The notes beneath the pieces are model-generated. The model ran no database searches and had not been told where the DNA came from. It saw only the letters and a program-made list of their open reading frames with translations. A stretch of DNA of 64,000 nt, taken from the IMG/VR virus record IMGVR_UViG_3300042691_010759; one strand, given 5' to 3'. The translations under genes and the position numbers were made by a program. Below are positions 1,329-64,000 of the stretch, one piece after another (position 1 is the first letter of the stretch; every line of letters starts with the position of its first letter). Source of the DNA: an uncultured virus (IMG/VR IMGVR_UViG_3300042691_010759). Taxonomy: Duplodnaviria > Heunggongvirae > Uroviricota > Caudoviricetes.

Positions 1329-1330
1329 AG

Positions 1331-2626: not shown

Positions 2627-2628
2627 AA

Positions 2629-4689
2629 TTATACTCTATTTAAAACTTTAAGACTTGGTACTTGAACATAATCAGAGAATGTAGGAACAAGTCCGGTACC
2701 TACCGGTTTATTTCCGTAACATCCTACAAGGGTAATTTCAGTTAATCCTGTTCCTGCAAATTCCATAAATTCAGCAGATGCTCCATTTGCTTCAGCAATA
2801 CAATTGTAGAAGTCTGCGCGTTTCACTTGACCTAATTGGTCATTTTGCCAAGTAATATTTGGAGCAGTAGGGAAAGCTATACCATCAGCACTCTGATAGA
2901 AGGAGCAGTTCATGAACTTGATGTATCTACTTACACCCAATATGTTTGCGTAACCAATAATTTTTGAATCTCTTACTGTAATATAAGATGGTCCAGGATC
3001 CGAATTGGTATTATTCAGATAGCAATTTATAGGACTTATGTTTGAGATAAGATCACCATTGATTCTTAGATCAACATGCCATCCAATATACCCTGTCCAA
3101 ATACAATGATTATTGTTTCCATAAACATTTCCATTTATTTCAACAACAGTTGGTCCACTAAATGCATTTTGGAACATAAATGATGGATTGTGTCCAGGGC
3201 GATCCGTTCTGCATTCTCCATTTATTATTACTTTTCCAGGCCCGGCTCCATCAGATTGAACAATTGCTGTATTAGCATTTCCATAATTAACTGTGTATGG
3301 AGCTATTAGTTTTAGGTCTGGACAGTTAACAAGTAGTCTTCCATTAAATGGAATATTTGCGGAACCTCTTCTTAGGATAAATAAACTATGTTGCGCATGG
3401 TAGTATTCTCTAATGTCAAATGTAACATCAGCTGAATCACCCATTCTTACACCATAAGCGCCACCATTGTATCCACTAATTCTAGCCCAATTACATTTAA
3501 TTTTTACAATAGGTGCAAAGTTTACAGAAATAAACCCGGCAGCATCAATAGAGTCAAACTCAATATCCAATCTACCACCTGAAGCGGAAGATTGATCCAT
3601 AAGAATAGACCATCCAAAGAATCGTTCAAATTTTGCAAAACCATAGAACTTGCTATATTGACCTGACGTTATAGCATTACCTGACAAAGTTCCAGTAATA
3701 ACTACACCCGGTTCACAATAAACATGAACGTTAGGTTGCATTGTAATAGACGAATAGAATCCCTTTCTAAGATAAACCAAAGAAGGATTAGAAGTGGAAG
3801 CACCAGATACAAATGCCGTACTAATAGCTGTAGAAGCAGATTGGTAAGGTTTACTAAATACTCCAATTTGAGCAGTTGCATCATTACCTTCTTCAGGATC
3901 TACAAATAGTATGTCTGAATATAAAATGTCGGATCCTCCTATAACATATTTCACAAAACCATTTATATCAATTACTTCTGTAACTCCGGATCCTTCAACT
4001 AATCCAGACATGGAATTTATTTTTGTACCATCAGAAAAAGTTATTTTACACGGTTCAGGTACAACTAGCAATTCTTGTCTTGTATAAGCAAAACCTCCTC
4101 CTTGATTTTGTGCTGTCCATTGAGTAAACGTGATTTTCCAATATCTATTAGAAGGAATATGGTGCATAACAAACCATTGTCCTACTAAAGATTGTCCCCA
4201 AGTAGGACCTGCCTCTAAATTAAAATCACGAGAACCATACCATGTTTCATAATTATACCCAGAATAAGCGGCATAATCATTTTCATCAAAGTTTCCGTCT
4301 GTATATGCGGAAGCCCACTCTGTATCTGCAGGACTTGTACGAAAATTATTATCGTAATTTGGCTCAACAGCTAAATTAAAGATACCTTGGTTGTCGCCCC
4401 TTGTTATTTCAAGAATTCCGGGAATGATTATATCAACTTCATTTCCGAAATTAGATTTTTGAAAAGAAATAATTGGACCCAACTCCACAGCTTTTGGGGT
4501 TAAGGTAATATCACATAAAGGACCGCCTCCTAATTGAGCTTTAAGATCTTCAAATGATATAGCACGGATTTCAGGTTTCTCTGGAATCTTATTCTTGTTT
4601 GGTTTAAAATATCCAACCATTAAAAGATCCTTATCCTTTAATGTTTTTATAAGTCGTCTAGCTCTGCCTTCGCTGAAAAAGTTAATCAT
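2629..4689 (-). CDS. putative tailspike / receptor-binding protein with beta-helix-like C-terminal half
   Basis: 686 aa; LFVDPEEGND...KPYQS resembles the start of pectin-lyase-like beta-helices, followed by Gly/Asn/Ile-rich sequence. Confidence 0.55.
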   Translation of the reverse strand: MINFFSEGRARRLIKTLKDKDLLMVGYFKPNKNKIPEKPEIRAISFEDLKAQLGGGPLCDITLTPKAVELGPIISFQKSNFGNEVDIIIPGILEITRGDNQGIFNLAVEPNYDNNFRTSPADTEWASAYTDGNFDENDYAAYSGYNYETWYGSRDFNLEAGPTWGQSLVGQWFVMHHIPSNRYWKITFTQWTAQNQGGGFAYTRQELLVVPEPCKITFSDGTKINSMSGLVEGSGVTEVIDINGFVKYVIGGSDILYSDILFVDPEEGNDATAQIGVFSKPYQSASTAISTAFVSGASTSNPSLVYLRKGFYSSITMQPNVHVYCEPGVVITGTLSGNAITSGQYSKFYGFAKFERFFGWSILMDQSSASGGRLDIEFDSIDAAGFISVNFAPIVKIKCNWARISGYNGGAYGVRMGDSADVTFDIREYYHAQHSLFILRRGSANIPFNGRLLVNCPDLKLIAPYTVNYGNANTAIVQSDGAGPGKVIINGECRTDRPGHNPSFMFQNAFSGPTVVEINGNVYGNNNHCIWTGYIGWHVDLRINGDLISNISPINCYLNNTNSDPGPSYITVRDSKIIGYANILGVSRYIKFMNCSFYQSADGIAFPTAPNITWQNDQLGQVKRADFYNCIAEANGASAEFMEFAGTGLTEITLVGCYGNKPVGTGLVPTFSDYVQVPSLKVLNRV

Positions 4690-4708
4690 AATACAAAAAT
4701 TACATTAC

Positions 4709-4720
4709 ACTATAATATAC
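4709..4720 (-). promoter_or_regulatory. GTATATTATAGT motif (putative phage late-type promoter)
   Basis: identical 12-mer at 5921-5932 and a variant at 9138-9149, each just upstream of a gene start. Confidence 0.5.
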
Positions 4721-4744
4721 TAAAAATATTTAAAACATACAACA

Positions 4745-4777
4745 AAAAAAAGGTGTCTAAAAAATAGACACCTTTCT
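4745..4777 (-). terminator. intrinsic terminator
   Basis: AAAGGTGTCTA/TAGACACCTTT stem followed by a T-run on the minus strand. Confidence 0.75.
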
Positions 4778-4836
4778 GTTAACCCTTAAACATCTCAAAA
4801 GCAATCAGCATGAACAAAGCATTTTTCAAGATGTTT

Positions 4837-4866
4837 CAAATATAGGCAAATTAAAGCAAACTACAA
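4837..4866 (-). promoter_or_regulatory. Bacteroidota sigma-70-type promoter (TTG-N19-TATATTTG)
   Basis: CAAATATA at 4837-4844 and CAA at 4864-4866 on + strand; matches the TTG-N19-TAnnTTTG consensus. Confidence 0.6.
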
Positions 4867-5358
4867 CTCATTAGGTAAAATTCTTTCTTTAGCTCTATTG
4901 GTAACATGCGTTATATCACGAACCAAGTGTTCCATCATATAACACTGGATCTCATGATTATCAGCTGTAATATTAATATTCAGATTATCTAAGATAAACC
5001 AAGATAGGTGGGTAGCTTCATGTACAATAGTATCTTCTATTCTAGGCCATGCTGGAGGATTATGTTCATTGATACAAACAAATACATAAAAGTTTGTACC
5101 AACCATAGGACCTTTGACTACGCAGGTATATCCGGGAATATGAATACTACCAAACTTTTCACGATCAATAAGTTCAACACCTCCTACCAGCTCACGCATA
5201 TGAGTCAGGATCTCATCCATGTACATTCCTACGATAACTTCGTACTTAGCATAAAACATAGGTAGCTCTACACTCTCATGGTAAATCTTAAACTTTCTTG
5301 AAGAAGAACCTTCCTCTCCTGGTCCACCCAGGAAATCATCATCATTGTTAAATTCCAT
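4861..5358 (-). CDS. HExxH zincin-like protein
   Basis: TIVHEATH motif plus downstream NHE. Confidence 0.55.
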   Translation of the reverse strand: MEFNNDDDFLGGPGEEGSSSRKFKIYHESVELPMFYAKYEVIVGMYMDEILTHMRELVGGVELIDREKFGSIHIPGYTCVVKGPMVGTNFYVFVCINEHNPPAWPRIEDTIVHEATHLSWFILDNLNINITADNHEIQCYMMEHLVRDITHVTNRAKERILPNEL

Positions 5359-5437
5359 ATAAAATATTTAAGGGGATTATATAAACCCAAAGATACTAAT
5401 TTTATACGAAGTCTCCCTAGAGAGTGATGCGATTTCC

Positions 5438-5605
5438 TCAGTTTTCTTTAATTGTGCAAACAGTAGTATATTTCTTCTGTTGCTCTATTGACACTTTATG
5501 AATATCAAACTCAAGATCCACAGATCCATAAGCATCACATTTGTGTGAGGATGTCTTACAGGATACCAGTAATAATAAACCCCCCACTATAAGCATCCTT
5601 TTCAT
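5438..5605 (-). CDS. small lipoprotein (55 aa, not in ORF track)
   Basis: translated by hand: MKRMLIVGGLLLLVSCKTSSHKCDAY...; hydrophobic stretch with lipobox LVS-C. Confidence 0.6.
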   Translation of the reverse strand: MKRMLIVGGLLLLVSCKTSSHKCDAYGSVDLEFDIHKVSIEQQKKYTTVCTIKEN

Positions 5606-5742
5606 CTTCCTTGCCCCCCGTACTTCTTTTTATAATTCTTGCTAGACTTCAACTTACTAGTCTTTGTTTTTGCATGCACACCTGGCCGGCTCACCTTGTG
5701 TGAACTAAATGCCTTTACTGAACTTTCTTTAACTTTTGCCAT
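5602..5742 (-). CDS. small basic protein (46 aa, not in ORF track)
   Basis: translated by hand: MAKVKESSVK...KNYKKKYGGQGR; overlaps both neighbours as in an operon. Confidence 0.6.
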   Translation of the reverse strand: MAKVKESSVKAFSSHKVSRPGVHAKTKTSKLKSSKNYKKKYGGQGR

Positions 5743-5920
5743 GTCTATTAAAATTAATTTCTTCTGCCCATCCTAAGATATATTCTTCTATCTCTTTCTC
5801 CGGGTAACCTAACTTACCAATAATGCTTTCCACTGCAAACATGAGTTGATCTGCATCTGGGTACTCAACGGGTGACTCATGCTCATACACACTCTCCCCT
5901 ATAGTGATAACAATTTTCAT
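5729..5920 (-). CDS. hypothetical protein
   Basis: 63 aa; ATG directly follows the GTATATTATAGT motif. Confidence 0.65.
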   Translation of the reverse strand: MKIVITIGESVYEHESPVEYPDADQLMFAVESIIGKLGYPEKEIEEYILGWAEEINFNRHGKS

Positions 5921-5932
5921 ACTATAATATAC
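5921..5932 (-). promoter_or_regulatory. GTATATTATAGT motif (putative phage late-type promoter)
   Basis: identical to 4709-4720. Confidence 0.5.
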
Positions 5933-5963
5933 AAAAAACCCCAGACATAATCCAGGGTTTTTT
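5933..5963 (-). terminator. intrinsic terminator
   Basis: minus strand AAAAAACCCTGGA-loop-TCTGGGGTTTTTT. Confidence 0.65.
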
Positions 5964-6312
5964 CTTACCTAAAGTTACATTCACTGAAAAAGTCTTTCAA
6001 ATATACGCATTTCCATAATACCCCCACCCCATAATAGTGTGTGCTATGAGTCTATATCAAAACAGCCCCGGCCCCTCATCGCAGCTTGGTGTACCCCCCT
6101 GCTTGCCAGGGCACGCATGCTTTTTTCTGAGGAAAAAATAAAAAGCATGCTTTTCCTGAGAAATGTTTCCTACGTCAACATGTTCTCTTCCCCTTGCAAT
6201 GCTACACAGCTGCTGACCTGCTCATGTCTCTTGATCAGACACTCGCAGGCCCAGACACACGTGCTATGTCATTCTTCCAAGCACAGTGCCTATATAAGGG
6301 GCCTTGTGGCTA

Positions 6313-6341
6313 GTATCCGTACCGGATACCAACTCCTTCAT
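6313..6341 (+). promoter_or_regulatory. hairpin + CAAC element 1 (candidate virion-RNAP early promoter)
   Basis: GTATCCG-TAC-CGGATAC then CAACTCCTTCAT; ATG at 6362. Confidence 0.65.
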
Positions 6342-6361
6342 AAGTCAAAACCCTTTGACTT

Positions 6362-6499
6362 ATGATAAAAACTTTATCCAAGCAAGTTATCAACGGGACG
6401 TTGAAACTTGTTGAAACAGTTTTGTACTCTAACGGTACACGCGTCATCAGGATCATAGATCCTAAGACGGGTATACCTACTGACGTTATCCGTCAGTAG
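6362..6499 (+). CDS. small early protein (45 aa, not in ORF track)
   Basis: translated by hand: MIKTLSKQVINGTLKLVETVLYSNGTRVIRIIDPKTGIPTDVIRQ; sits between element 1 and a terminator. Confidence 0.6.
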   Translation: MIKTLSKQVINGTLKLVETVLYSNGTRVIRIIDPKTGIPTDVIRQ

Positions 6500-6513
6500 A
6501 GTACGCCACGCAC

Positions 6514-6545
6514 AGCACATCTGAAATAGATGTGCTTTTCTTTTC
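6514..6545 (+). terminator. intrinsic terminator
   Basis: AGCACATCT-GAAAT-AGATGTGCT then TTTCTTTT. Confidence 0.7.
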
Positions 6546-6546
6546 T

Positions 6547-6575
6547 CAATGCGTTCCGCATTGCAACTCCTGCAA
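6547..6575 (+). promoter_or_regulatory. hairpin + CAAC element 2
   Basis: CAATGCG-TTC-CGCATTG then CAACTCCTGCAA; ATG at 6594. Confidence 0.65.
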
Positions 6576-6593
6576 GCTATAAAACTTATAGCT

Positions 6594-6782
6594 ATGCAAA
6601 CACACTTCACTCTCCCATCCGGGTTCGTTCATTGCGACTTATGCGGTTGCGTACAACCGTTAAGCAATGCTACCACATTCCTTAACGGTTACGTGTGCAC
6701 CCCATGCGTCCCTAATGCTACTGCTCAGCTTCAAGAAGAAGCTGATCAGATACGCATTCTACAGCAACAAAGCAAGCATTAA
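6594..6782 (+). CDS. small early protein with CxxC...CxxC zinc ribbon
   Basis: MQTHF...HCDLCG...VCTPC; start moved to ATG 6594. Confidence 0.6.
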   Translation: MQTHFTLPSGFVHCDLCGCVQPLSNATTFLNGYVCTPCVPNATAQLQEEADQIRILQQQSKH

Positions 6783-6804
6783 GCTTGCTGTTGCTTTTTG
6801 GTCA

Positions 6805-6833
6805 ATGCGTTTACGCATCTCAACTCTCTCTTG
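6805..6833 (+). promoter_or_regulatory. hairpin + CAAC element 3
   Basis: ATGCG-TTTA-CGCAT-CT then CAACTCTCTCTTG; follows a terminator-like hairpin at about 6762-6799. Confidence 0.6.
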
Positions 6834-6928
6834 CTCTTGCGTTGCACCCATCACAAGTCACACAGATGCTCTCATACTGTTCTTGCCTTGCCGTGCATTG
6901 CACTTTTATTCACTTAATACTTAAGCTC

Positions 6929-7153
6929 ATGTCAAAGTACACATTCTACGCTCAAACACTGATCACACTAAGTGTAATCAGCTTAGCACTCACAGTGCTT
7001 GCCTTCTACCTCCACGCAGGAACCATCGGCGCTATAGGCTTGATGTTCTCCTACCTGATGTTCTATGCTTTCCTTAAAGCACCTGACCATGAGAAATACG
7101 TTGATGAACCACTTAATTCCTCATACCATGATCGGACTAAACGCAAATCATAG
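6929..7153 (+). CDS. small membrane protein (two hydrophobic segments)
   Basis: MSKYTFYAQTLITLSVISLALTVLAFY...GAIGLMFSYLMFYAFL; start moved to ATG 6929. Confidence 0.6.
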   Translation: MSKYTFYAQTLITLSVISLALTVLAFYLHAGTIGAIGLMFSYLMFYAFLKAPDHEKYVDEPLNSSYHDRTKRKS

Positions 7154-7307
7154 GGTGATCAGGGTACACATACTCGGCTACAGAACAGTAACCGAGTATG
7201 CGGTATCCATATGGCACGCCTTGGACAAAGCCTATTCCAAGTACAGTCATATTCAGCCTGATAGAAACAAATACGTAATAGGCAAACCTAAAACACAAAC
7301 ATCATGA
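7128..7307 (+). CDS. hypothetical early protein
   Basis: ATG 7128; stop overlaps the next start. Confidence 0.45.
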   Translation: MIGLNANHRVIRVHILGYRTVTEYAVSIWHALDKAYSKYSHIQPDRNKYVIGKPKTQTS

Positions 7308-7528
7308 AGAAGAGTTTGATATTTACCATTATCCTTTGTGTTGTTGCAGGATCCATAGCTACGGCTATGGACCTGTACTTCACCAAAGATAAACCACACG
7401 TTGACTTCAGTGTTGACTATCAAATAGATCTTCAGCCTAACGGCTACAAGATCCTTGATGAGAACGGTGAGGTGTATCACGTGCCACCCGGACAACTTGA
7501 ACAATGGTTTCTTGAGATGAACCTATAA
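7304..7528 (+). CDS. small exported or membrane-anchored protein
   Basis: MKK + hydrophobic N-terminus; followed by a terminator-like hairpin. Confidence 0.65.
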   Translation: MKKSLIFTIILCVVAGSIATAMDLYFTKDKPHVDFSVDYQIDLQPNGYKILDENGEVYHVPPGQLEQWFLEMNL

Positions 7529-7612
7529 AGACTTGGGAGCTTGCGCTCCCTTGTTTTTGTTTCTCACAAAGGTTAGGTTACTATCATCACACAAAACCAC
7601 GCACATGATTTA

Positions 7613-7642
7613 GGATTGCGTAACCGCAACCCAACTCCTACT
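7613..7642 (+). promoter_or_regulatory. hairpin + CAAC element 4
   Basis: GG(A)TTGCG-TAAC-CGCAACC then CAACTCCTACT; ATG at 7671. Confidence 0.6.
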
Positions 7643-7670
7643 GAAACTTAAACATTAAACATTTTCACCC

Positions 7671-7985
7671 ATGAAAACATTCAACGATTTAAAGTTTGGT
7701 AGCCATCCTCTTGACGGCATTATGGCAACGCTACAGTTTGACAACGGATACGGTGTATCAGTTATCTCCGGTAGCTACTTCAACTGCACTCCCGGGCAGA
7801 CCTATGAACTTGCCATGACTAACAATACAGGACACCTTTTGTACTGTGACATTGTTAATCATGACGTTCTAGGGCACTTAACGCCTGATGATGTTAGCCA
7901 AGTAATGGCAACCATCCAAGCGTTAGAGCCCGGCTCTATCCCATCTTCATCTGATGATGATGAAGATGATGACGCTGATGACTAA
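7671..7985 (+). CDS. phage hypothetical protein with acidic tail
   Basis: FDNGYGVSVI...YELA pattern typical of a small phage protein family; Asp-rich C-terminus. Confidence 0.7.
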   Translation: MKTFNDLKFGSHPLDGIMATLQFDNGYGVSVISGSYFNCTPGQTYELAMTNNTGHLLYCDIVNHDVLGHLTPDDVSQVMATIQALEPGSIPSSSDDDEDDDADD

Positions 7986-7988
7986 AAC

Positions 7989-8020
7989 AGGAGAGAGAGA
8001 CAAGATCTCTCTCCTTTTTT
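7989..8020 (+). terminator. intrinsic terminator
   Basis: AGGAGAGAGA...TCTCTCTCCT + T-run. Confidence 0.7.
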
Positions 8021-8114
8021 AACCAACTCTATCTTATTTCTATTATTACATATTACTTAGTAATAATAAGGATCCCTTAACGGGGGGATCACCCTCAATA
8101 AGATATATGACTTC

Positions 8115-8143
8115 GTGTGCGAGACGCACACCAACCCTTTCTT
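8115..8143 (+). promoter_or_regulatory. hairpin + CAAC element 5
   Basis: GTGTGCG-AGA-CGCACAC then CAACCCTTTCTT; ATG at 8162. Confidence 0.65.
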
Positions 8144-8161
8144 CCGTCAAAATCAAAGATT

Positions 8162-8395
8162 ATGACTATCAACGCTCCCGTTATCCCAAACTGGCTCCTC
8201 CAGATGCCTGACTACGTCATACATCAGTATGAACTCATGTTTGCTCATCCGGATGCCATAAACATTGCGCAGTTAACTAAGTTAAAAGCGGAATGTTTGT
8301 ACCGTGAATACTATACCTATCTTGCTCAGCTGAAAAAGCTTGAGCGCGAGTACGGCATAGATCTTCCGGTACCACCTGAATACCGCAGACCATAA
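8162..8395 (+). CDS. hypothetical early protein
   Basis: start moved to ATG 8162 (MTINAPV...). Confidence 0.6.
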   Translation: MTINAPVIPNWLLQMPDYVIHQYELMFAHPDAINIAQLTKLKAECLYREYYTYLAQLKKLEREYGIDLPVPPEYRRP

Positions 8396-8447
8396 TAGGT
8401 CTTGCGGTATTCCACCGCGCCAAATACATTCATCATGTATTTGGCGT

Positions 8448-8477
8448 GTGTGCGCATACGCACACCAACTCCTTCAT
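8448..8477 (+). promoter_or_regulatory. hairpin + CAAC element 6
   Basis: GTGTGCG-CATA-CGCACAC then CAACTCCTTCAT; ATG at 8523. Confidence 0.65.
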
Positions 8478-8522
8478 TGCCTTAAACGGCAATATTGCCA
8501 CAAAACTTAAATTTTCACTGCC

Positions 8523-8909
8523 ATGAAAATTTCACTTTTACGCTCTTACCGTTCAAAGAACGGTAATGCAACGTTCGTTTACAAAGTAAACGCAACGTCT
8601 GCAGAGCTTACGGCGTTCAAGAACGCACAAGGTGACTACTACCGTGAAGACACGGATGGTACTCCCCTGTGGTTCACCACGCGCTGTGTCGGCTCTACAG
8701 GCAAGCTCATCATCACGACCAACGGAAACGTTGTTCCTGACATGAGCGCCTTTGACCAAGCATCCTCTATTGCTGCGCAATACGGAGGAAACTTCGGTCA
8801 AGAGCTCGCACGCTCTGCCGCCCAAGCAATTTTGGGCACTGCTGCTCCAGCAGGTTCTGTTCCACAGAACACTCCGGAGCAGGAATCACAGGACCTTATG
8901 GACCTGTGA
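8523..8909 (+). CDS. early protein, paralog A (acidic C-terminal tip)
   Basis: about 83/105 N-terminal residues identical to 9730..10119 by manual alignment. Confidence 0.8.
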   Translation: MKISLLRSYRSKNGNATFVYKVNATSAELTAFKNAQGDYYREDTDGTPLWFTTRCVGSTGKLIITTNGNVVPDMSAFDQASSIAAQYGGNFGQELARSAAQAILGTAAPAGSVPQNTPEQESQDLMDL

Positions 8910-8920
8910 TTCACAGCACC

Positions 8921-8956
8921 CAAGAAACCAAGCTCACCGCTTGGTTTCTTTTTTTT
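8921..8956 (+). terminator. intrinsic terminator
   Basis: AAGAAACCAAGC-TCACC-GCTTGGTTTCTT + T-run. Confidence 0.8.
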
Positions 8957-9149
8957 GCTTGTACGCACGCTCCCGGATCTCCGGTCGCCTTCCCTTTTTT
9001 TCTTATGGTGTTCCTTCCAGTCACGCCATAATGTGTTCGCCGTGCTCACGCTCACTCCGCTCGCCATAGTCAGGAAAGCCTGACAGATATGTTAGTTACT
9101 ATCATCAACAAGACATTGCATGACTCAGAGATTTTTTGTATATTTATGT

Positions 9150-9452
9150 ATGGCAACAAAGAAAGTACCTCAAAGAAAGAACAAGAATGCTGGTAAGTCT
9201 ACCGGTAAGTCTGAATCAGCTCAATACTTCGCGGCTAACCCAGAAGCTAGAGCTAAGAAGAATGAATACAATACAAACTATCATAGTTCTGATGAACGTA
9301 AGAAGTATAGAGCTTCACTCAATAAGCTCAGCCGTAAGAACGGTAATAGTACCACGGATAATAGCCACACTAAATCCGGTAAGATAGTTAAGGAATCTAG
9401 ATCCGCTAATAGGGCCCGTAATGGTAAGAACGGTAAGTCTTCTAAGAAATAA
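9150..9452 (+). CDS. highly basic protein, possibly a degenerate HNH-like protein
   Basis: Lys/Arg/Asn-rich; DNSHTKSG...ANRARNG resembles an HNH-like core; ATG 9150 follows GTATATTTATGT. Confidence 0.5.
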   Translation: MATKKVPQRKNKNAGKSTGKSESAQYFAANPEARAKKNEYNTNYHSSDERKKYRASLNKLSRKNGNSTTDNSHTKSGKIVKESRSANRARNGKNGKSSKK

Positions 9453-9460
9453 TCCTCCTC

Positions 9461-9474
9461 CCAACCCCTTCTTG
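9461..9474 (+). promoter_or_regulatory. CCAACCCCTTCTTG element (no hairpin)
   Basis: identical 14-mer at 9636-9649 and 15346-15359. Confidence 0.6.
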
Positions 9475-9635
9475 CTACTAAAGTATTCAGAGTATATAAG
9501 CGCGTGAGAATGTGGTAAGTCAGTTCTCATTCCCGCTAACTGTATTCTGTGTATGTAAACCCGGTTAAGAAGTCTGGGTAGCAGATGACGCGAAGACATA
9601 TTACTTCGTAGTCTTTTAAGTTTATTTTGCTACTC

Positions 9636-9649
9636 CCAACCCCTTCTTG
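9636..9649 (+). promoter_or_regulatory. CCAACCCCTTCTTG element
   Basis: upstream of 9730. Confidence 0.6.
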
Positions 9650-9729
9650 TCAGGAAAGATATGAGTGATAATTGTACTTGTATCCAATGTTTAGTAATTT
9701 ATGTTTAACCCCAAATAAATCAAAACAAG

Positions 9730-10119
9730 ATGAACATCAAGTTGATTAGATCGTACAGATCAAAGAATGGCAACCCTACGTTTGTGTATGGTGTATCAGG
9801 TAAGGCTTCAGATCTTGAGGCATTCAAATCTGCTCAGGGCGATTACTACCGTGAGGATAGTGACGGATCTCCATTGTGGTTTACTACACGTTGTGTAGGA
9901 CAAACCGGAAAGTTGATCATCACTACTAATGGTAATGTAGTGCCGGATATGAGCGCGTATGACCAGGCGGCAAGTTTGGCTTCACAGTATGGAGGTAACT
10001 TCGGTGCTGAGTTGGCTAAGTCTGCAGCGCAGGCTATCCTAGGAGCTTCTGTTCCTACAGCGTCTGTTAGTAAAACTGAATCTGCTCACACAGAGTCAGA
10101 TGATCTAACTGATCTGTAA
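9730..10119 (+). CDS. early protein, paralog B
   Basis: paralog of 8523..8909. Confidence 0.8.
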   Translation: MNIKLIRSYRSKNGNPTFVYGVSGKASDLEAFKSAQGDYYREDSDGSPLWFTTRCVGQTGKLIITTNGNVVPDMSAYDQAASLASQYGGNFGAELAKSAAQAILGASVPTASVSKTESAHTESDDLTDL

Positions 10120-10132
10120 TAAAGAGTAATAA

Positions 10133-10164
10133 TGCCCGTGAGATGAAAGTCTTGCGGGCTTTTT
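10133..10164 (+). terminator. intrinsic terminator
   Basis: GCCCGTGAGA-TGAAAG-TCTTGCGGGC + T5. Confidence 0.75.
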
Positions 10165-10518
10165 ATATCTTTTAGCAGTAAATCTTTTAGTTTTTAAACA
10201 ACTCACATAGTAATTACTGCGTGAGTTACAGGTTTTTTGTAAAAATGTATGAATGAATGTAAGTGGATGCTCTCATACCCCCAATTCATCATAATCATAT
10301 TCACCTTAAATACTATACTTCACGTAGAGTTCTATATTTATATAGATACAATACTGTGAAGTATATGTATTTGTAAATCAAATAGCCATGTATATATTTA
10401 ACTTTACGCCACAGGCAAGAGAGTGTAAGAGATGTCATACCTCTTCTCACATAGTATTGGTACAACTTACCAATGGGAGACAAGTACAGAAGTGTAAACA
10501 ATGTAATACTTACGTGTA

Positions 10519-10758
10519 ATGGATATAGGTACAGTAATACGGATCGTAGAGATGTTAGATAACAGGCTCTCGGTCATAGAAGAGAAAGCCAAGGGTTTTC
10601 CAAAGACTAAATTAGGAGGAGATATTCCCATTGAACTGGTATTAGAGATTTCTAATAACGGAGAAAGGAATGCACTCCGGGAACTCAAGCTTCACTTAGA
10701 AGATTATCTTGAGTACCAGGTCACTCAAGCAGAGAATGCATTAGGTAGGGGGGAGTGA
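10519..10758 (+). CDS. hypothetical protein
   Basis: 79 aa ORF. Confidence 0.6.
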   Translation: MDIGTVIRIVEMLDNRLSVIEEKAKGFPKTKLGGDIPIELVLEISNNGERNALRELKLHLEDYLEYQVTQAENALGRGE

Positions 10759-10793
10759 TCCCTCTGTTATTTATTCACTTAACACCGTTAGCC

Positions 10794-11030
10794 ATGGGAT
10801 TAGGAAGAAAGTCACGCGAAGAAATTATACAGGAAGAATATGATAAGCTCATGAATGAGGTTACTGATTCAGAACTTCCTAGCCGTATGTTAGATTACTA
10901 CGGCATGCCTGCACTGTCAATACCGCCGGATGATTTAATCACCTGCAGTAAGTGTGGCAAAGAGTATCCTGAGTCTGAAGGACCAGACGGATACTGTTCA
11001 CGTTCATGCTTTGAACGGGATCAAATTTAA
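10794..11030 (+). CDS. hypothetical protein with C-terminal Cys cluster
   Basis: CSKCG...YCSRSC zinc-binding pattern. Confidence 0.55.
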   Translation: MGLGRKSREEIIQEEYDKLMNEVTDSELPSRMLDYYGMPALSIPPDDLITCSKCGKEYPESEGPDGYCSRSCFERDQI

Positions 11031-11032
11031 AA

Positions 11033-11210
11033 TAGTGCGACACCACAGTCGCATCCATATAACATTACAATAAAGGAAAGTTTGTTCCTTGTATTGTTAG
11101 ACATTCACATTGACCTTGTAAGATACTCAGGTAGAGTGGTTTAGGTTAGATTTGCATGGCTAAGTGTATGACACAGGTGTCGCAGTCATTGCGACACAGG
11201 TGTCGTACTA
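11033..11210 (+). repeat. three GACAC-N2-GTGTC-type palindromes flanking a structured segment
   Basis: TGCGACACCACAGTCGCA 11036-11053; TGACACAGGTGTCGCA 11169-11184; TGCGACACAGGTGTCGTA 11190-11207. Confidence 0.65.
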
Positions 11211-11331
11211 TATAAAAATTATCACTATATTTGTGATGACACGGAGGGACGTGTATAAATAGGTGCTTAGGTCCCCGCGTTGAGCTTCAATTTAATGGTC
11301 AATAAAATTGTGTAACCATTAAAACTATTGT

Positions 11332-11568
11332 ATGAAAGCATTAGGAATTGAAGTAAAGTTAGAACAAGATCAGATTAATGATATGGTATCATACATTAAT
11401 CACAATTACCCGGAGGTATTTGGACAGATCTGGCAAGCAGGATATGACTCTAACATTTGTAGCTGTGCTATAGAATGGGAGGAGCAACAGCGAGGATGCT
11501 GGCAATGTCCTACTTGTGGTGGTGCTGGACAGCATCATTGTTTTAACTGTGATCCTTACCCCAATTAG
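11332..11568 (+). CDS. small Cys-rich protein
   Basis: CSC, CPTC and CFNC motifs; TATATTTG at 11226-11233 upstream. Confidence 0.6.
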   Translation: MKALGIEVKLEQDQINDMVSYINHNYPEVFGQIWQAGYDSNICSCAIEWEEQQRGCWQCPTCGGAGQHHCFNCDPYPN

Positions 11569-11700
11569 GATCTCAGGTGCACTGCACGAAGTTTGGCAGC
11601 GTAAACACTGGTCAGTGAAACGCTGTAGGTTAGACTATAACCTTGAGCTGTTGATGAAGGAAGTAATCATCGGCTCTCAACTATAGTCAACAAAGACATT

Positions 11701-11955: not shown

Positions 11956-11988
11956 AGAACCTTAACCATCACAAATACTTTAACCCTT

Positions 11989-15345: not shown

Positions 15346-15359
15346 CCAACCCCTTCTTG
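15346..15359 (+). promoter_or_regulatory. CCAACCCCTTCTTG element
   Basis: third identical copy; upstream of 15502. Confidence 0.6.
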
Positions 15360-57707: not shown

Positions 57708-60700
57708 TTAAACTCCCGCACAATGATTCATAAAATCAAGTACAGCTTGTTTGTTCACTTCTTTAATTTTAATATCGCTTACTTCTTGTTTTTCTTGAAC
57801 TACGGCTTTTCCTGTTCCGGTCTTTAAATAACCAGGATTGATGTAACCAAAATTCTCAAATAACTGCTTGGACAAATATAAGAAAGTTTGAGGTGCAAAC
57901 ATAGATCCGTTAGTCCCAGTATCTAGCATATCTTGACCATAGCCTTTATTATTAAACACTATAGTTTTACCCACAGACTCCTCAACAAGTTGCTCAATAG
58001 CATTGTCAATTGCTATTTTTACATCAGGATCTATATCACCATCTTTATCCCTTATTACAGAACCTCTTTCTTGTCCAGCTGGATTGCTGTAGTACATTCT
58101 AGTTGGTAAACCAAAAACATTTGATGCTTTATTATGTAATCTAGAATCATCCATTGAAGTTCCTGCAGAACGAGCATTGATTGCGTGATTATATAGATAA
58201 ATGTTCTCTGGATTATTTTGAAGCATTGCTGTCAAAGTCTCCATAGGGGAGGCCTGAATATAGTCTTGCGTACCAGGTGTTAAAGATCTTGGTGGAACAA
58301 TATCAAAAGTTTCAGAAATTTCAATTCCATTATAAGTTATGGCAATTACTTTACCTTCGTTATCTTTTATTGTAGAAACGCTACTTATTTCATATTTCTT
58401 TTCATTTGAAACAACAAGATCTCCTACTTTTTTAGGATTACGCAAATGATTATCAAACTTTTGATCTCCTTTCTTAACAGTAAGGATTTCTGTTTTTTCA
58501 GCATTAATACCTAAATCGTATGAACCACTTAACACACCATTAGGTTTTTGTTTAAACCTAACTCCCGTAAAATAATCCTTACCTCTAATTTTACCCATAC
58601 GGCTTCTATTGGCATCTTTAAATTTCTTAAAATAATCATTTAAGATACCAGAAAGTCCCATTTCTGCTATTGTTAGATTTTTTCTTTCTCTAATGACTTT
58701 GCGACTTTCAAAATGGCGCAACAAAGCTTTAGTAGATTTTTCTAATAATCTAGTAATAGGTGCTGAATCAACTAAGCGTACAAGAGAATATCTACTTTTA
58801 GTATTAAAGCCAGACTGTAAAAATGCTACTAAAGGCAATCGTTTAAAAATGTCTGTAATCTCTTGAACCTCTTGTGGAGTTTTATTTTTTACAATTTCCT
58901 TAAACGCTCTAGGATCCGCAAGAGTCTTAAGATTTTCATATGCTACATTAATCTGATCTGAATCAAGCTTAGAATCATTAAGAGCAATATTCTTAAAATT
59001 ACCAGCATTGCTTGCGTTGTCAGTTGTTTGAATAGATATGTTATTCAGAATAGAAAAATAAGCTTTTAAATCTGGATGTTTATCAAGTATTGCAAATAGT
59101 TGTTGTGCATACGTATTGTTACTCTTAAACATTTTCCAATAGTTATAAGAATTATCCAATGCTTTATTTCTAAGCCATCTTTCGTATGCCAGTGTTATTT
59201 TTCTTTGCTTAAAATTATCTACAGATTCTTCTTGTCTTTGTGCAATTTTTTTATCAGCATCTATTTCAGAAAGAAGTTCTGTAAACTCTAAATTATCTTT
59301 TAGATCTAATGGTTTGTATTTAGCACGGAGTGTCTCTCTTTCTAATACAAATTTATGATATTCTTCTACAGTTTGGAAAGCTGAGTTACTGACATGAGCC
59401 AAACCTCTTTTTTCCATTTCTTCTTTCTTGGAAAAATTTCTATCAATAAAATCTCTATTTATCGTTTTCTCATCAATATATAAAACACCATCCTGGACAA
59501 AAGCTCCAAATGTTAAATTAGGTACACGCTTGATGTTAGCATTTTGTATTTCATATCCATTGTATGTTTCAAGATCCGCTAATCTTATACCACGTATTTC
59601 ATTCTGCAAAAGATATAATGGCAAATCATTCTTAAAATCAATTACAAACTGTTCATCATTGCCTCCTGTAGCTTGAGCTAATTCTTCATCTGATAAACTA
59701 GCAAGTTTTTCTCTTATAAAATAATTTAGTTCTTCATGATTTCTCAATGGGAATACTCTACCAAGTAACTCAATTTGAAAAGGTTGAATAAAGAAACTTC
59801 CAATAGGGGAATCTGTTATTAACCTATCAACCATTTCTGTTGGAATACGTGAGTCTTTACGTAAAGCTTCAATTAGTGTTATTCGATTTTCAGCTTCAAA
59901 GAGACTACCATCTTTAGATGTATCAACGTTCATTTTCATTTTAACATCGCGCACGGACTTAGCCATTTCTTCTATTTCTAAGAAATGTAAAAATGCAGCT
60001 CTATCAAAATCCGTATACTCATGCTGTTCACCATTTTTTCTAGAAGTAGCTTCTGCTTTTATTGCAGCCCAAAGCTGATCTTTATCAAATTCACCATTGG
60101 CATTTAATACATTTTCATTAATGCGCTTAGTTGCTTCTCTCTTAATAGTATTTCCAATATACTTAAGATCATCAGCTGTTGCATCAAATCCATATTGAGG
60201 ACCTCCTAACATCTGTCTTCTTGCTTCTGATCTATAAAATTGAGGAGCATCCGGAGCCTTATTAAGTGGTATTGCAAATGTACTCTTAGCTAGTTTCTGT
60301 TCTTTTACATAACTTCGTACCATAGGCATGGATACAAAATATACTGCTTGTTCAAAAGGAACACCTGCTTGAAGCATGAATAATAAAACTGGTGATACTT
60401 CTTTGTTACCCTGGATATCAAATATCCAAGCACTCTTAGCAATATCAACCCATCCATTCATCAATCGGTTAATCATATCAGAAACTTTATACTTCCCTTC
60501 AGCATCTCTAACATGAGATAATGATATAGCATCTTCTTCTCCTACCTTACGCTTATTGTGAGGCATAAAAAGTTTTTGTCTATAATAGCTGTTAAGTTTT
60601 TTCTTTTCTGCTTTAGATAATTTTTTAGCTCCTGGTTCTCCAGCATCTGCTGCAGCTTGCCTATCAAGAAGTTCATTGTACTCCTCAGTAGTTATTCCAG

Positions 60701-63700
60701 CTGTAGGATTCATATACATTCCAATACGATTAAAAAGTGCATTGTATGTATTATCTACAGCACCTAATCCTAGAGTCTGTTTACCTACTGAGTTAGAACT
60801 ATGCTTGTAAAGATTATATCTAATTTCAAGGGCCCTTGTTGGTGAAATAATATCTTTACGCTTACCATCTTTCTCTACATAACGCTTTTGGCCATTCTTA
60901 ACGTCAAGAGGGTTATATGGTCTAACATATTGCGAAAGTTCCTCAGCTAAAGGTTCTGCAATATCTGTTGAGTTTGGTGTAATTAAAGTCTCATAATTTT
61001 CAGGAAGAGAAAGGATGTTACGGATATCTGTAATCAAATCATTCTGGATTGCTTTATCGCTCAACATTCTCTTTTTAAATTCATCAAATGTTTCAAGTTC
61101 TCCTTCTTCAATTAGCATTTCAAGAAGTTCTTTTTCCATATCTTCTGTTGATATGAACAAAGATTCTCCTGTTTCTCTATTTGTAAAATTTAATAGAAAA
61201 GCATCTAGTTCCGTAGCAGCATCTAGATCCATTCCACCTCTTGCAATCTTAGTCTTTGCATCTTTGTAAACTTCATAAGCTTCTGCAAGTTCTTGTTCAT
61301 TATAGTTCCACATTTGCGGTTCTACACTGACCATTCCTCTTTCTCTTTTAGCTTTACGAATATTTGGCATCATGACCGTAAGCTTATCAACATCAAAGTC
61401 AGCTCCAGATTTAGCTACAATTTCTGTAGGAGGAATAATAATAGATCCTGCTTCAGCTGGCAAGAACTCATATACTTCCATGAATTCCATAGAATTCATT
61501 CCTTGCACAGGAATACGTACACCTACCATTGTTACCATTTCCCGGTGACGCTTACCTTCTTTATCTAACCAAGCATCATTTTTTATCATTTCGTTTAGCC
61601 TCTCAATAGAGCCAATACGCTCACCATCATTGTGAGTAAGATCTAATAGATGAACAAATTGTCCACGTAAGGCTGCTTTGACTTTCATAGCAGCAGTAGT
61701 GCCATCTGCATTTTTTCGGTATGTAGGAAGGTCATTAGTACCATTGTACTTTTTATTATCCTCACTAGATGCATTAGTCCAATCATAACCTTCTGCTCCG
61801 TTCATTTCTTCAAAAAGAGTAGAAGCTACTTGAATTAACCCTTCTCCATTTACTTTCTGATTAATTAAACGTTTAACCATTAATGAATTAAGAGCTTTTT
61901 CAATTTGTTCGACACTCAAAGAAAGTGAAAGATCGTTTTTAATATTACCTGTGCGCGGATCAATATCAATAAAATCAAGTTCATGTTCAGCTAAATCTTT
62001 TGTAGTAAGAGACTTTTTAATGAACGCAATTAAATCACGCATTTCACCTTGAAGAATTTCTGTACCATTCTCAATTCTAGAGGTCCAGTTCATCTCCTTT
62101 AACAGCTTTTCTTTTTGAAATTGTGTTAGTCTTTCAATACTGTTTTCATATTTCTTAAGTAGCTTATATCTATTTGATTCTCCTTCTTTATCTTGAACAG
62201 CATCCCAGGCTTTGATACGTACATTAATATCTGTTTCATCAGACATAAAATCTGTAGGTACTCCTGCTTCCATTAAACCATCTTCAATAAGCTTTCTTAG
62301 CTGGGTTGAGAAGATAACTTTACCTTTAGATTCACTATGAATGTTAAGCTGATTTTTCAAGAATTCTAAATGAATAGTGTTCTTTGTAAAAGGCTCGGTT
62401 AATTCTAATGTCCTATTCTCCTTATAAAGAGTATCTGCACCACTAGCTTTACTAATAGTACTCACCTTAGATCCTGACTCAAACGTCAAATACTTAATAC
62501 CTTCTTTGAGCATTTTCTTATGAAGAGCTTCTGCATTTTTATTCTTAACTACAGATGGTATTAAAGGCATGAGTGAATACTTATGGAAAGCCATAAGATT
62601 TAATCTATTACTATGTGATAGCGGTCCCCAATATTGTGCTTTAATTACAGGGAAGAACTCTTTAACTTGAGCAGGTGATATGCGCTCTCCTTTAACAATC
62701 TTTCTGAATAAAGCTTCTTGTGTATCGGACCAATCTCCTTCTGCAACTTTTAATTCACGGTATGCATCAAATGTAATTAAACCTTGAGCATCTGCTTCAG
62801 TCATTTTTTCATAAGGTCCAACAGCATCTTCACCAAGTTGTGCTAGATAACTATCGTAATAAGCCGATTTCATATTCTGATCTTTTACTACAGCTGTAGC
62901 AAAAGTTCCATCAAATAATGATTGAGCAATACCGTCTTCTTCTGGTAATGATTTAGCATAACTTGTCTCCCATAAACGTCTATTGATATAGTTTTGCATT
63001 GCAGAATCCGTTCTATAAATAGTACCGGTAGATCCAGCTCCCGCATTTCGCTTATGAAATTCTTCTTTTACATGATTATACAATGCTAAATCCCCATAGA
63101 ACATAGCTAATGATTCAATATTATGTATCCAGTTGTTATATACATATGATTTTACTAAAGCATCTTTAGCTGAAGATAGCGTCATTGTAACACCTTCTGC
63201 TTTACCTTCTTGAATAATCTGCTCTGTAATAGTTGATGTAGCAAAATCATATTCCTTATATAACTTAGAAACTTCTTGATACTCGCTATCAAAATAACTA
63301 GTAAGAGAATCATAAATAGATTTTCTTAATCTCTCATTACTATTAATAGTATCTTCAATATCAAGAGTACCGTTTGCTAAGTTTAAAAGTAGAGTTCTAG
63401 TTTCTGGCAATAGTACATCATCAAAAGCTGAAAAGTCACCTCCTTGCTTTAAATACTTGAAATCATAAGTTTCAGGATCCATAGTTTTTAAGATCCGTAT
63501 TCTTTTAATTTCAGCTATAAGATGTGGAGTAAGTGAATCAAACAACTTTTTATTATACGCACTAGAAGGCCCTGCAAATAAATGAGCCGGAATATAATGC
63601 CTATTATTACCTCCGCGTATAGGTCCATCTACAACAACACTATAAGATGTACCCTTATCAGCATGTCTCATTAATTCTGGAGTACCCGCAAAAGATAAGT

Positions 63701-64000
63701 GTAAATCTAATATTAGTTTAGTTGCTTCATCCGCATTTGCAGATGCAATACCATTTGCTGAAGAATCATCAGCTTCTTTAAGAAGAGCTCCGGAAAGATT
63801 TGTTAATCGCAGTTCTACTAGATCACCATTATCCTTTAATCTTCTTTCTCCATATTTAGGATCGGTTTGCGGAACATCTAAATTAAATATAGACTTAAGC
63901 CAAACTGAAGCTTCTGCAAAAGGATTATAGTTTGGATTTGGTGAACCATCTGGTAAAGTTTCTCTAATATCCAAATAAGACATATGTCTTTGAGAAATTA
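57708..64000 (-). CDS. virion-packaged RNA polymerase (crAss-like, two-barrel), 5' end outside the window
   Basis: more than 2091 aa, frame open to the window edge; RIPVQG and SGADFDVDKL (catalytic DxDxD, about 61386-61400). Confidence 0.85.
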   Translation of the reverse strand, partial: ISQRHMSYLDIRETLPDGSPNPNYNPFAEASVWLKSIFNLDVPQTDPKYGERRLKDNGDLVELRLTNLSGALLKEADDSSANGIASANADEATKLILDLHLSFAGTPELMRHADKGTSYSVVVDGPIRGGNNRHYIPAHLFAGPSSAYNKKLFDSLTPHLIAEIKRIRILKTMDPETYDFKYLKQGGDFSAFDDVLLPETRTLLLNLANGTLDIEDTINSNERLRKSIYDSLTSYFDSEYQEVSKLYKEYDFATSTITEQIIQEGKAEGVTMTLSSAKDALVKSYVYNNWIHNIESLAMFYGDLALYNHVKEEFHKRNAGAGSTGTIYRTDSAMQNYINRRLWETSYAKSLPEEDGIAQSLFDGTFATAVVKDQNMKSAYYDSYLAQLGEDAVGPYEKMTEADAQGLITFDAYRELKVAEGDWSDTQEALFRKIVKGERISPAQVKEFFPVIKAQYWGPLSHSNRLNLMAFHKYSLMPLIPSVVKNKNAEALHKKMLKEGIKYLTFESGSKVSTISKASGADTLYKENRTLELTEPFTKNTIHLEFLKNQLNIHSESKGKVIFSTQLRKLIEDGLMEAGVPTDFMSDETDINVRIKAWDAVQDKEGESNRYKLLKKYENSIERLTQFQKEKLLKEMNWTSRIENGTEILQGEMRDLIAFIKKSLTTKDLAEHELDFIDIDPRTGNIKNDLSLSLSVEQIEKALNSLMVKRLINQKVNGEGLIQVASTLFEEMNGAEGYDWTNASSEDNKKYNGTNDLPTYRKNADGTTAAMKVKAALRGQFVHLLDLTHNDGERIGSIERLNEMIKNDAWLDKEGKRHREMVTMVGVRIPVQGMNSMEFMEVYEFLPAEAGSIIIPPTEIVAKSGADFDVDKLTVMMPNIRKAKRERGMVSVEPQMWNYNEQELAEAYEVYKDAKTKIARGGMDLDAATELDAFLLNFTNRETGESLFISTEDMEKELLEMLIEEGELETFDEFKKRMLSDKAIQNDLITDIRNILSLPENYETLITPNSTDIAEPLAEELSQYVRPYNPLDVKNGQKRYVEKDGKRKDIISPTRALEIRYNLYKHSSNSVGKQTLGLGAVDNTYNALFNRIGMYMNPTAGITTEEYNELLDRQAAADAGEPGAKKLSKAEKKKLNSYYRQKLFMPHNKRKVGEEDAISLSHVRDAEGKYKVSDMINRLMNGWVDIAKSAWIFDIQGNKEVSPVLLFMLQAGVPFEQAVYFVSMPMVRSYVKEQKLAKSTFAIPLNKAPDAPQFYRSEARRQMLGGPQYGFDATADDLKYIGNTIKREATKRINENVLNANGEFDKDQLWAAIKAEATSRKNGEQHEYTDFDRAAFLHFLEIEEMAKSVRDVKMKMNVDTSKDGSLFEAENRITLIEALRKDSRIPTEMVDRLITDSPIGSFFIQPFQIELLGRVFPLRNHEELNYFIREKLASLSDEELAQATGGNDEQFVIDFKNDLPLYLLQNEIRGIRLADLETYNGYEIQNANIKRVPNLTFGAFVQDGVLYIDEKTINRDFIDRNFSKKEEMEKRGLAHVSNSAFQTVEEYHKFVLERETLRAKYKPLDLKDNLEFTELLSEIDADKKIAQRQEESVDNFKQRKITLAYERWLRNKALDNSYNYWKMFKSNNTYAQQLFAILDKHPDLKAYFSILNNISIQTTDNASNAGNFKNIALNDSKLDSDQINVAYENLKTLADPRAFKEIVKNKTPQEVQEITDIFKRLPLVAFLQSGFNTKSRYSLVRLVDSAPITRLLEKSTKALLRHFESRKVIRERKNLTIAEMGLSGILNDYFKKFKDANRSRMGKIRGKDYFTGVRFKQKPNGVLSGSYDLGINAEKTEILTVKKGDQKFDNHLRNPKKVGDLVVSNEKKYEISSVSTIKDNEGKVIAITYNGIEISETFDIVPPRSLTPGTQDYIQASPMETLTAMLQNNPENIYLYNHAINARSAGTSMDDSRLHNKASNVFGLPTRMYYSNPAGQERGSVIRDKDGDIDPDVKIAIDNAIEQLVEESVGKTIVFNNKGYGQDMLDTGTNGSMFAPQTFLYLSKQLFENFGYINPGYLKTGTGKAVVQEKQEVSDIKIKEVNKQAVLDFMNHCAGV

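Follow-up and report, generated by a model that had tools for sequence, protein, structure and literature searches.

Hairpin-associated CAAC boxes as candidate early promoters of a phage-specified RNA polymerase in a freshwater crAss-like phage

Introduction

Phage RNA polymerases of the T7 group use single-box promoters that are read as duplex DNA and lack a flanking hairpin. The early promoters P1-P3 of coliphage N4 are read by an injected, T7-like single-subunit virion RNA polymerase; their hairpin is centred at -11, and the start lies 4-5 nucleotides (nt) past its base (PMC4496689). Thermus phage P23-45 carries a virion polymerase fused to the tape measure, and an AT-rich pre-early promoter motif has been tied there to mapped starts and chromatin immunoprecipitation sequencing (10.1101/2022.12.01.518664). 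The crAss-like phages rank among the most abundant viruses known. Each of them carries a giant RNA polymerase that it injects, and the signal recognised by this enzyme is undefined. In phage phi14:2 the enzyme, gp66, transcribes single-stranded or denatured DNA, the recombinant protein initiates only on single-stranded DNA, and the early promoters are left undefined in the preprint of the study (10.1101/2020.03.07.982082). Here we analyse 64,000 nt of DNA from an uncultured virus (IMG/VR record IMGVR_UViG_3300042691_010759), called the window below, in which six short hairpins, each followed by a CAAC-containing box, stand before successive early genes.

Our literature search covered titles and abstracts, and none of those listed described a promoter recognised by a virion polymerase of the crAss type. 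On balance, and with moderate confidence, we read the boxes of this freshwater crAss-like phage as compact promoters for early genes, used by an RNA polymerase that the phage itself specifies, probably the virion enzyme; the hairpin would be accessory. This reading is built on comparative sequence analysis.

Results

Six hairpin-box elements in the window

A preliminary description, made from the letters of the window, had listed six hairpin + CAAC elements, and all six were recovered with the sequences it gave (Table 1). We scanned both strands of the window for a perfect stem of at least 5 pairs, a loop of 3-6 nt and a gap of 0-3 nt before CAAC. Among the 16 matches, CG-loop-CG and CAACYC came together in the six elements only, and the pattern TGCG-N3-4-CGCA-N3-CAACTC had 4 matches against 0.00 expected (100 dinucleotide shuffles). 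The six elements are far beyond chance. Folded as single-stranded DNA, they reach -3.9 to -8.5 kcal/mol (z -3.2 to -4.4), compared with 0 to -1.9 kcal/mol (z -0.55 to +0.72) for four boxes that lack a hairpin.

Each element precedes an ATG, with 32, 30, 108, 39, 30 and 57 nt from CAAC to ATG in elements 1-6. The elements had also been said usually to follow a terminator; this holds directly for elements 2, 3 and 4 and at about 100 nt for element 5 (predicted, + strand), but element 1 has no terminator before it, and the hairpin that precedes element 6 lacks a T run. A further hairpin + CAACTCC string, the seventh, is found at 42276-42293 on the - strand (CTAGAA-TAC-TTCTAG-CAACTCCTCC), inside a + strand open reading frame (ORF; 42269-44017). 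It is probably a chance occurrence, because its score (11.7 bits on the weight matrix described below) falls in the shuffle range.

The box is the conserved core

The preliminary description had treated hairpin and sequence as one architecture. Both parts are real, but the widespread, conserved part is the box, and the hairpin is not its core. The box spans 10-13 nt, CAACYCYTYCWTG on the coding strand, with about ten + strand intergenic copies at 6330-15359 in the window, six of them with a hairpin. The window contains 19 copies of CAACYCY on the + strand and 8 on the - strand; 11 of the 19 are intergenic (6330 to 17583), and those without a hairpin are the four in Table 1 and a weak one at 17583.

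A weight matrix was built solely from 220 sites in relatives, applied with a cut-off of 12 bits and compared with 20 shuffles. It returned 10 + strand matches of at least 12 bits in the window, all of them upstream of genes at 6330-15347, and 1 on the - strand; 5 window boxes scored above the maximum of the 20 shuffles. The box is found again in the early regions of some 80 related environmental contigs. Over 232 distinct sites the consensus is C-CAAC-C-C-Y-T-T-C-T-T-G, A-rich at +18 to +20 (positions counted from the first box base). An exact search with the 20-mer from the box at 9637 gave 0 matches in 185,579 species genomes and 0 in IMG/VR, a result that speaks to exact copies alone.

Concerted variants of the box in related phages

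Relatives were found through a conserved early protein that has two paralogs in the window (8523-8909 and 9730-10119, + strand; 128-129 amino acids (aa), 73% identical, without a Pfam or PHROG family). The family has 157 tblastn-confirmed stretches in marine and freshwater metagenome contigs and, by tblastn, none in 50,697 cultured or deposited phage records. The set used here comprised 12 viral contigs and 73 metagenome loci (273.5 kb in all for the 73 loci, three of which are the window's own phage). In these loci CAACYCY stands 281 times on the gene strand and 48 times on the other. In a complete 122-kb genome (G006), 7 of 12 box matches lie within 2.8 kb, on one strand.

The closest distinct relative is locus L165. 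At four elements the next gene downstream has an ortholog there, with 35/62, 42/110, 46/77 and 105/130 residues identical. In L165, CAGCCC replaces CAACYC at 8/8 equivalent sites. Other lineages have 7-9 same-strand copies of CACCAC or CAACCA, and further ones show single visible copies of CGACCC or CAACCT. Alteration of the same base at every site of a genome is expected of promoter-polymerase co-evolution, with one fast-evolving reader, and a one-base change at every site is hard to square with a conserved host sigma factor.

Other searches returned little. Megablast of window positions 6000-12000 against phage records gave no match; the nearest record (G001) is a 24-kb fragment without the early region; a search with the neighbouring 686-aa protein gave one contig, in the opposite orientation; and the hairpin + CAAC pattern in IMG/VR gave single, chance-like occurrences among the matches listed.

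A crAss-type virion polymerase and an early gene arm

The gene at the right end of the window had been described as a crAss-type two-barrel virion RNA polymerase (57.7-64 kb), and homology bears this out: residues 817-1003 match 6VR4, the structure of phi14:2 gp66, at E = 3.8e-19. By tblastn the protein matched 57 phage records (by the first word of their names, Bacteroides 29, uncultured 18, Cellulophaga 2 and others); the 25 of the 57 that were listed are all crAss-like phages or uncultured gut phages, and the matches include phi14:2 g066, annotated 'catalytic RNA polymerase subunit'. Homologs of gp66 occur in the window and in 3/5 related records (G006, G007 and G003), at 40-53% identity. 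No other RNA polymerase, T7-like ones included, and no sigma domain was detected among 63 window proteins scanned with Pfam.

Genes run leftward from 37 to 5920, a rightward arm extends from 6362 to about 49300, and two giant leftward genes occupy 49392 to the window end; element 1 thus belongs to the first unit of the rightward arm. Small ORFs of unassigned function come first in this arm, which also holds a TROVE-like gene (11989-13422; DUF7788/DUF2828, phrog_850) and a helix-turn-helix (HTH) gene (HTH_36, 14186-14434). The early module of crAss001 is reported to contain a regulator and a TROVE protein (PMC8375218), and the TROVE-like gene therefore marks this region as early by homology.

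Hairpins are retained through stem replacement

MAFFT alignments cannot register stems of 5-7 base pairs (bp) and loops of 3-4 nt in shared columns, so hairpins were sought by explicit scans. A hairpin adjoins 6/10 boxes in the window (binomial P = 5e-8; the background rate in 5900-18000 is 2.5% of positions), 6/8 boxes in L165 (P = 8e-8) and 2/6 in L167 (P = 0.009); the background across these three is 2.5-3.8% of positions. We conclude that, in the window's phage, L165 and the L166-170 lineage, the hairpin is a genuine addition to the box and is under selection.

Stem sequences differ while pairing is kept, as first described: the lower stems vary among window elements, and their L165 orthologs pair with other sequences. 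Element 5 (GTGTGCG/CGCACAC) differs from its counterpart at L165 1925 (GCATGC/GCATGC) by two double substitutions; element 4 and L165 1065 share the loop TAAC, and a paired G...C indel separates their stems; and the stem of element 6 is re-formed in a shifted register at L165 2934. Each genome keeps its own sequence at the stem top, TGCG/CGCA in 5/6 window hairpins and TGC/GCA in 5/6 of those in L165. The window stems measure 5-7 bp, with loops of 3-4 nt, and the stems listed are Watson-Crick, without a G-T pair.

The loops carry a strand signal. Among distinct box-adjoining triloops, 11/16 are TNC on the coding strand, that is GNA on the template strand, compared with 67/619 other triloop hairpins in the same DNA (Fisher P = 1.3e-7). 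Such strand asymmetry argues for a single-stranded, template-strand form and against a symmetric duplex operator. The signal is weaker in the window itself, whose template-strand loops are GTA and GAA (both GNA), TCT and three tetraloops. We also weighed a stronger version of the promoter reading, in which box and template-strand mini-hairpin together form the promoter of the crAss-type virion RNA polymerase, recognised in extruded or single-stranded form, an N4-like strategy that evolved independently. We hold this version tentatively, as possible. The likeness to N4 proposed in the preliminary description stands for the 5-7 bp stem and the short loop, and may extend to the lean to GNA in the wider hairpin set; it fails in that a box lies between the hairpin and the likely start. 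The polymerase family is, as first described, unrelated.

Host-type signals and a second strand-biased motif

Terminator-like sites are enriched in 5900-18000 (29 against 8.1 +/- 2.9 expected), and predicted + strand intrinsic terminators at 6514, 6771, 7535, 7989, 8922 and 10134 end successive units. No such excess is seen for sigma-70-like sites (29, where 34.1 +/- 6.3 are expected). Host primary-sigma promoters have two spaced elements upstream of the start, -35/-10 for sigma-70 and, in Bacteroidetes, -33 TTTG / -7 TAnnTTTG.

It is unlikely, in our view, that the boxes are promoters read by the host RNA polymerase with an alternative sigma factor, or with a virion-delivered or early specificity factor, while the virion polymerase uses another signal such as TTACTATCATC. 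Sigma specificity should not switch among close relatives, yet CAACYC in the window faces CAGCCC in L165 at every site. The boxes show no -35/-10 or -33/-7 architecture, TAnnTTTG is absent from the box-holding intervals of the window arm, and units 1, 2, 3, 5 and 6 have no other candidate signal from terminator to ATG. In relatives, the box often lies 10-20 nt past the T run of a terminator, which leaves room for a compact promoter only.

Two features nevertheless favour a host reader. The first is a TAnnTTTG box at 11226, which points to host-type promoters in the arm. This Bacteroidetes-type -7 box, TATATTTG (11223-11230), lies about 25 nt before the starts of RNA contigs at 11253-11255 in three runs; host-type promoters thus seem to coexist with CAAC boxes in the arm, a hint of a Bacteroidota host. 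The second is TTACTATCATC itself, a motif that heads the gene of a K-rich protein, a gene without a CAAC box, and that often follows a terminator. Its strand bias (81 distinct copies of TTACTATCATC(A) on the gene strand, 4 on the opposite one) exceeds that of the CAAC box; the motif is also invariant across lineages whose CAAC-type box differs, and numbers 2-6 copies per genome, all on one strand. Being strand-biased and lineage-invariant, it competes for assignment to the polymerase. In the window, one copy is antisense within the giant gene that neighbours the polymerase gene; judged by coordinates, G003 and G007 seem to share this arrangement.

Inverted repeats as possible operators

The box could instead be a promoter whose inverted repeats are duplex operators for a dimeric regulator, for example the HTH_36 protein, that shuts off the leftmost early promoters. 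We judge this quite unlikely, although the perfect palindromes with a common half-site in each genome, the presence of an HTH gene in the same arm and the restriction of hairpins to a subset of promoters, as with operators, all suit it. Half-site spacing is variable (loops of 3 or 4 nt) and so is stem length, the outer stems vary freely with pairing kept, and the strand-asymmetric loop bias would be meaningless for a symmetric duplex site.

Likely start and transcript data

Around the boxes, hairpin starts are depleted from -12 to +5 and peak at +10, with 12 sites compared with 0-9 at other downstream offsets. Elements 1, 2 and 6 have a stem-loop whose first base falls at +8 to +11, as do boxes of L165 and L166-170; position +10 is often A. 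AT-rich stem-loops about 10 nt past the first base of the box are seen in the window (Table 1), at L165 359-376 and in others. With a start near +10, the mRNA would carry a stem-loop at its 5' end and the box would occupy about -10 to -1. The length of the box and the stem-loop at +10 suggest a wider spacing than that of N4; alternative starts would lie inside CAAC, with N4-like spacing, or at the A's at +18-20.

Seven freshwater metatranscriptome runs contain 7-22% of the sampled words of 6000-12000, and four runs were compared over 1-20000. Among the RNA contigs listed, single genes are spanned (8193-8417; 8497/8506/8511 to 8919/8921 in three runs; 9731/9755 to 10124/10126) and none crosses an element, an absence of cover that is uninformative. 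Late-gene DNA (2248-2681, 3404-3577) appears in one RNA run, so that DNA carry-over is possible. We draw no support for the promoter reading from these contigs.

We rate as improbable a role in RNA, where hairpin and box, carried within longer transcripts, would mark a site of processing, stabilise the RNA or signal antitermination (nut/put-like). In several elements the box forms a 10-nt single-stranded linker between two hairpins, typical for endonuclease cleavage or protein binding, and precise RNA ends do occur in the arm, where the non-coding RNA at 11587 starts at the same base in three runs. Against this, elements 2-4 lie directly past canonical intrinsic terminators, so that few read-through transcripts would include them; no + strand gene lies upstream of element 1; the stems listed are Watson-Crick palindromes with no G-T pair; the triloop bias, GNA on the template strand, would be UNC in RNA; and the box-to-ATG spacing ranges over 30-108 nt. 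Three further candidates were rejected: intrinsic terminators (CAAC follows the six hairpins without a T run, and none is in the predicted terminator list), iterons or an origin (the copies span 9 kb and are always upstream of genes) and a ribosome-binding signal (the distance to ATG is variable).

Other features of the arm

The stretch at 11587-11955 (+), just upstream of the TROVE-like gene, is non-coding and folds with z = -4.4; it has no Rfam match. RNA contigs of four runs cover it at the highest depths observed (8.7-21), and three of them start exactly at 11587 and end at 11926-11938, before a terminator. This RNA may be a Y-RNA-like partner of the Ro/TROVE-like protein. Rfam gave no convincing family match in the early arm. 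In two related loci, the long intergenic region upstream of the TROVE-like gene holds hammerhead-like CTGATGAG...CGAAAC strings (L002 ~3783-3805, L003 ~4063-4082; no hammerhead at the Rfam gathering score in either) and, in L002, a tRNA-like stretch (~3950-4070).

The 390-nt divergent region between the arms contains a large nested palindrome, GCATGC-T6..A6-..-A5-GCATGC (6112-6165), which is kept in L165 (100-150) and may be an origin or genome-end feature.

Table 1. Boxes, hairpins and associated features of the window. Bits, score on the weight matrix; kcal/mol and z, folding as single-stranded DNA.
Feature	Position	Strand	First base of CAAC	Bits	Details
Element 1	6313..6342	+	6330	15.7	Hairpin GTATCCG-TAC-CGGATAC (6313-6329) adjoining box CAACTCCTTCATA (6330-6342); ATG 6362; -5.6 kcal/mol, z -3.2
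Hairpin downstream of element 1	6338..6365	+			12-bp stem TCATAAGTCAAA-accc-TTTGACTTATGA, AT-rich; begins at box position +8; encloses ATG of first early gene (6362-6499)
Element 2	6547..6576	+	6564	12.9	Hairpin CAATGCG-TTC-CGCATTG (6547-6563), box CAACTCCTGCAAG; terminator 6514-6536 upstream
Hairpin downstream of element 2	6575-6593	+			AT-rich; ends at ATG 6594
Element 3	6805..6833	+	6821	16.5	Hairpin ATGCG-TTTA-CGCAT (6805-6818), 2-nt gap, box CAACTCTCTCTTG; terminator 6771-6789 upstream; ATG 6929
Features upstream of element 4		+			Terminator 7535-7550; TTACTATCATCA copy 7578-7589
Element 4	7613..7644	+	7632	16.3	Hairpin GGATTGCG-TAAC-CGCAACC (7613-7631; one A x C mismatch; perfect core 7616-7629), box CAACTCCTACTGA; ATG 7671
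Possible hairpin-less box	8024..8036	+		12.4	CAACTCTATCTTA; score in shuffle range; 9 nt past terminator 7989-8015; no ORF before element 5
Element 5	8115..8144	+	8132	20.5	Hairpin GTGTGCG-AGA-CGCACAC (8115-8131), box CAACCCTTTCTTC; z -4.4; ATG 8162
Element 6	8448..8493	+	8466	18.9	Hairpin GTGTGCG-CATA-CGCACAC (8448-8465), box CAACTCCTTCATT (8466-8478); ATG 8523
Hairpin downstream of element 6	8476-8493	+			ATTGCC-ttaaac-GGCAAT, AT-rich
Hairpin-less consensus box	9462..9474	+		25.7	CAACCCCTTCTTG; heads 175-nt non-coding stretch; L165 ortholog at 3953 is CAGCCCC
Hairpin-less consensus box	9637..9649	+		29.2	CAACCCCTTCTTG(TCAGGAAAG); best match; upstream of gene 9730-10119; orthologs L003 605, L165 4129
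Hairpin-less consensus box	15347..15359	+		25.3	CAACCCCTTCTTG; upstream of gene 15502-15966
TTACTATCATC copies	7578-7589, 9096-9107, 27289-27300; also 16803, 53416				78 more in related loci
Two-barrel virion RNA polymerase gene, presumed reader	57708..63983	-			2091 aa in window; DFDVD at residue 862, inside the stretch matched to 6VR4

Discussion

The proposal that these elements are early promoters has strong comparative support, in that the box is conserved, strand-specific, intergenic, placed after terminators and changed in concert within lineages; what did not hold is the hairpin as the core of the signal. We infer promoter function from this pattern. In the model that we favour, the box, lying between the intrinsic terminator of the previous unit and the next small early gene, would be read by a phage-specified RNA polymerase. 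The gp66-type polymerase at 57.7-64 kb would be the most likely reader, because early genes need to be expressed before any phage protein is made. Transcription would probably start within or just past the box, about +8 to +20 from its first C, and the stem-loop that begins at +10 in several elements would form the 5' end of the mRNA. At the six leftmost units the box is adjoined by a hairpin of 5-7 bp, whose GC-rich top (TGCG/CGCA) is conserved and whose base varies. This hairpin may form on the template strand by cruciform extrusion; once extruded it would assist in opening the promoter, or flag it, for the polymerase, which in phi14:2 starts transcription on single-stranded DNA.

Several observations weigh against this model. 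Some concern the hairpin: 23/232 distinct boxes have an adjoining perfect hairpin (offset 0), compared with 1-20 at other nearby offsets, which is near the local background. The three top-scoring boxes of the window (25-29 bits) have no hairpin, and the hairpin boxes are weaker consensus matches (12.9-20.5 bits), for which reason the hairpin may compensate for a poorer box. The window triloops are closed by G-C, not by the C-G of GNA mini-hairpins; one of them (AGA/TCT) is non-GNA on the template strand, and 3/6 loops are tetraloops. Perfect palindromes, moreover, suit a dimeric DNA-binding protein equally well as a hairpin. Others concern the reader and the start. TTACTATCATC could be the signal of the virion polymerase, the CAAC box being read by something else. 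Phage phi14:2, the sole crAss-like phage with mapped early 5' ends, has no box cluster (23 scattered CAACYCY matches, 2 of them in the first 14 kb), and its authors report no common upstream motif in the preprint (10.1101/2020.03.07.982082). The RNA contigs, being assembled, cannot reveal starts, strand or level, and the starts considered here are predicted from the sequence; the window scan, finally, covers 64 kb of a genome of apparently ~90 kb.

A box with natural lineage variants, with or without a hairpin, offers templates for in vitro initiation, for structures of initiation complexes and for the annotation of early regions in uncultured Crassvirales. If the virion enzyme is indeed the reader, the variants CAACYC, CAGCCC, CACCAC and CAACCA would be a natural specificity series for it.

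Comparison with described systems

The polymerase of phi14:2 is homologous (E = 3.8e-19, DFDxD), and in that phage, too, small genes are reported to form a rightward early arm, in which the intergenic stretches are long and transcribed. The two phages differ in their signals, for the account of phi14:2 gives no common motif at the early 5' ends and CAACYCY is scattered in its genome.

With T7-group promoters the boxes share a compact single block just upstream of the start, many copies per genome and concerted change between related phages. The polymerase family is unrelated, however, and T7-type promoters are read as duplex DNA, without a flanking hairpin.

The parallel with P23-45 is that a two-barrel polymerase, made of a single polypeptide and carried in the virion, has a conserved motif of its own before the earliest genes, a motif that recurs in relatives carrying the enzyme. 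The P23-45 motif is reported as AT-rich and start-mapped, whereas the box of the window is C/T-rich and its starts are deduced from sequence.

Hairpin promoters of the N4 type have a template-strand GNA triloop with a sheared G:A pair, and their extrusion is driven by supercoiling and single-stranded DNA-binding protein (SSB). The N4 polymerase is a T7-like single-subunit enzyme, whereas that of the window is a two-barrel gp66-type protein with DFDVD. In N4 the hairpin is the promoter, whereas here a linear box of 10-13 nt lies between the hairpin and the likely start; most boxes here have no hairpin, loops are 3 or 4 nt, and the closing pair in the window is G-C. The likenesses are that the signals stand at the head of the early arm, before the early genes of a polymerase-injecting phage; that a 5-7 bp hairpin has a conserved GC-rich top and a variable paired base, possibly also in that loops lean to G..A on the template strand; and that the N4 and crAss-type (phi14:2) enzymes are both reported to prefer single-stranded templates in vitro. 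If the hairpin acts as DNA, this phage would provide a second, independent case of the N4 strategy.

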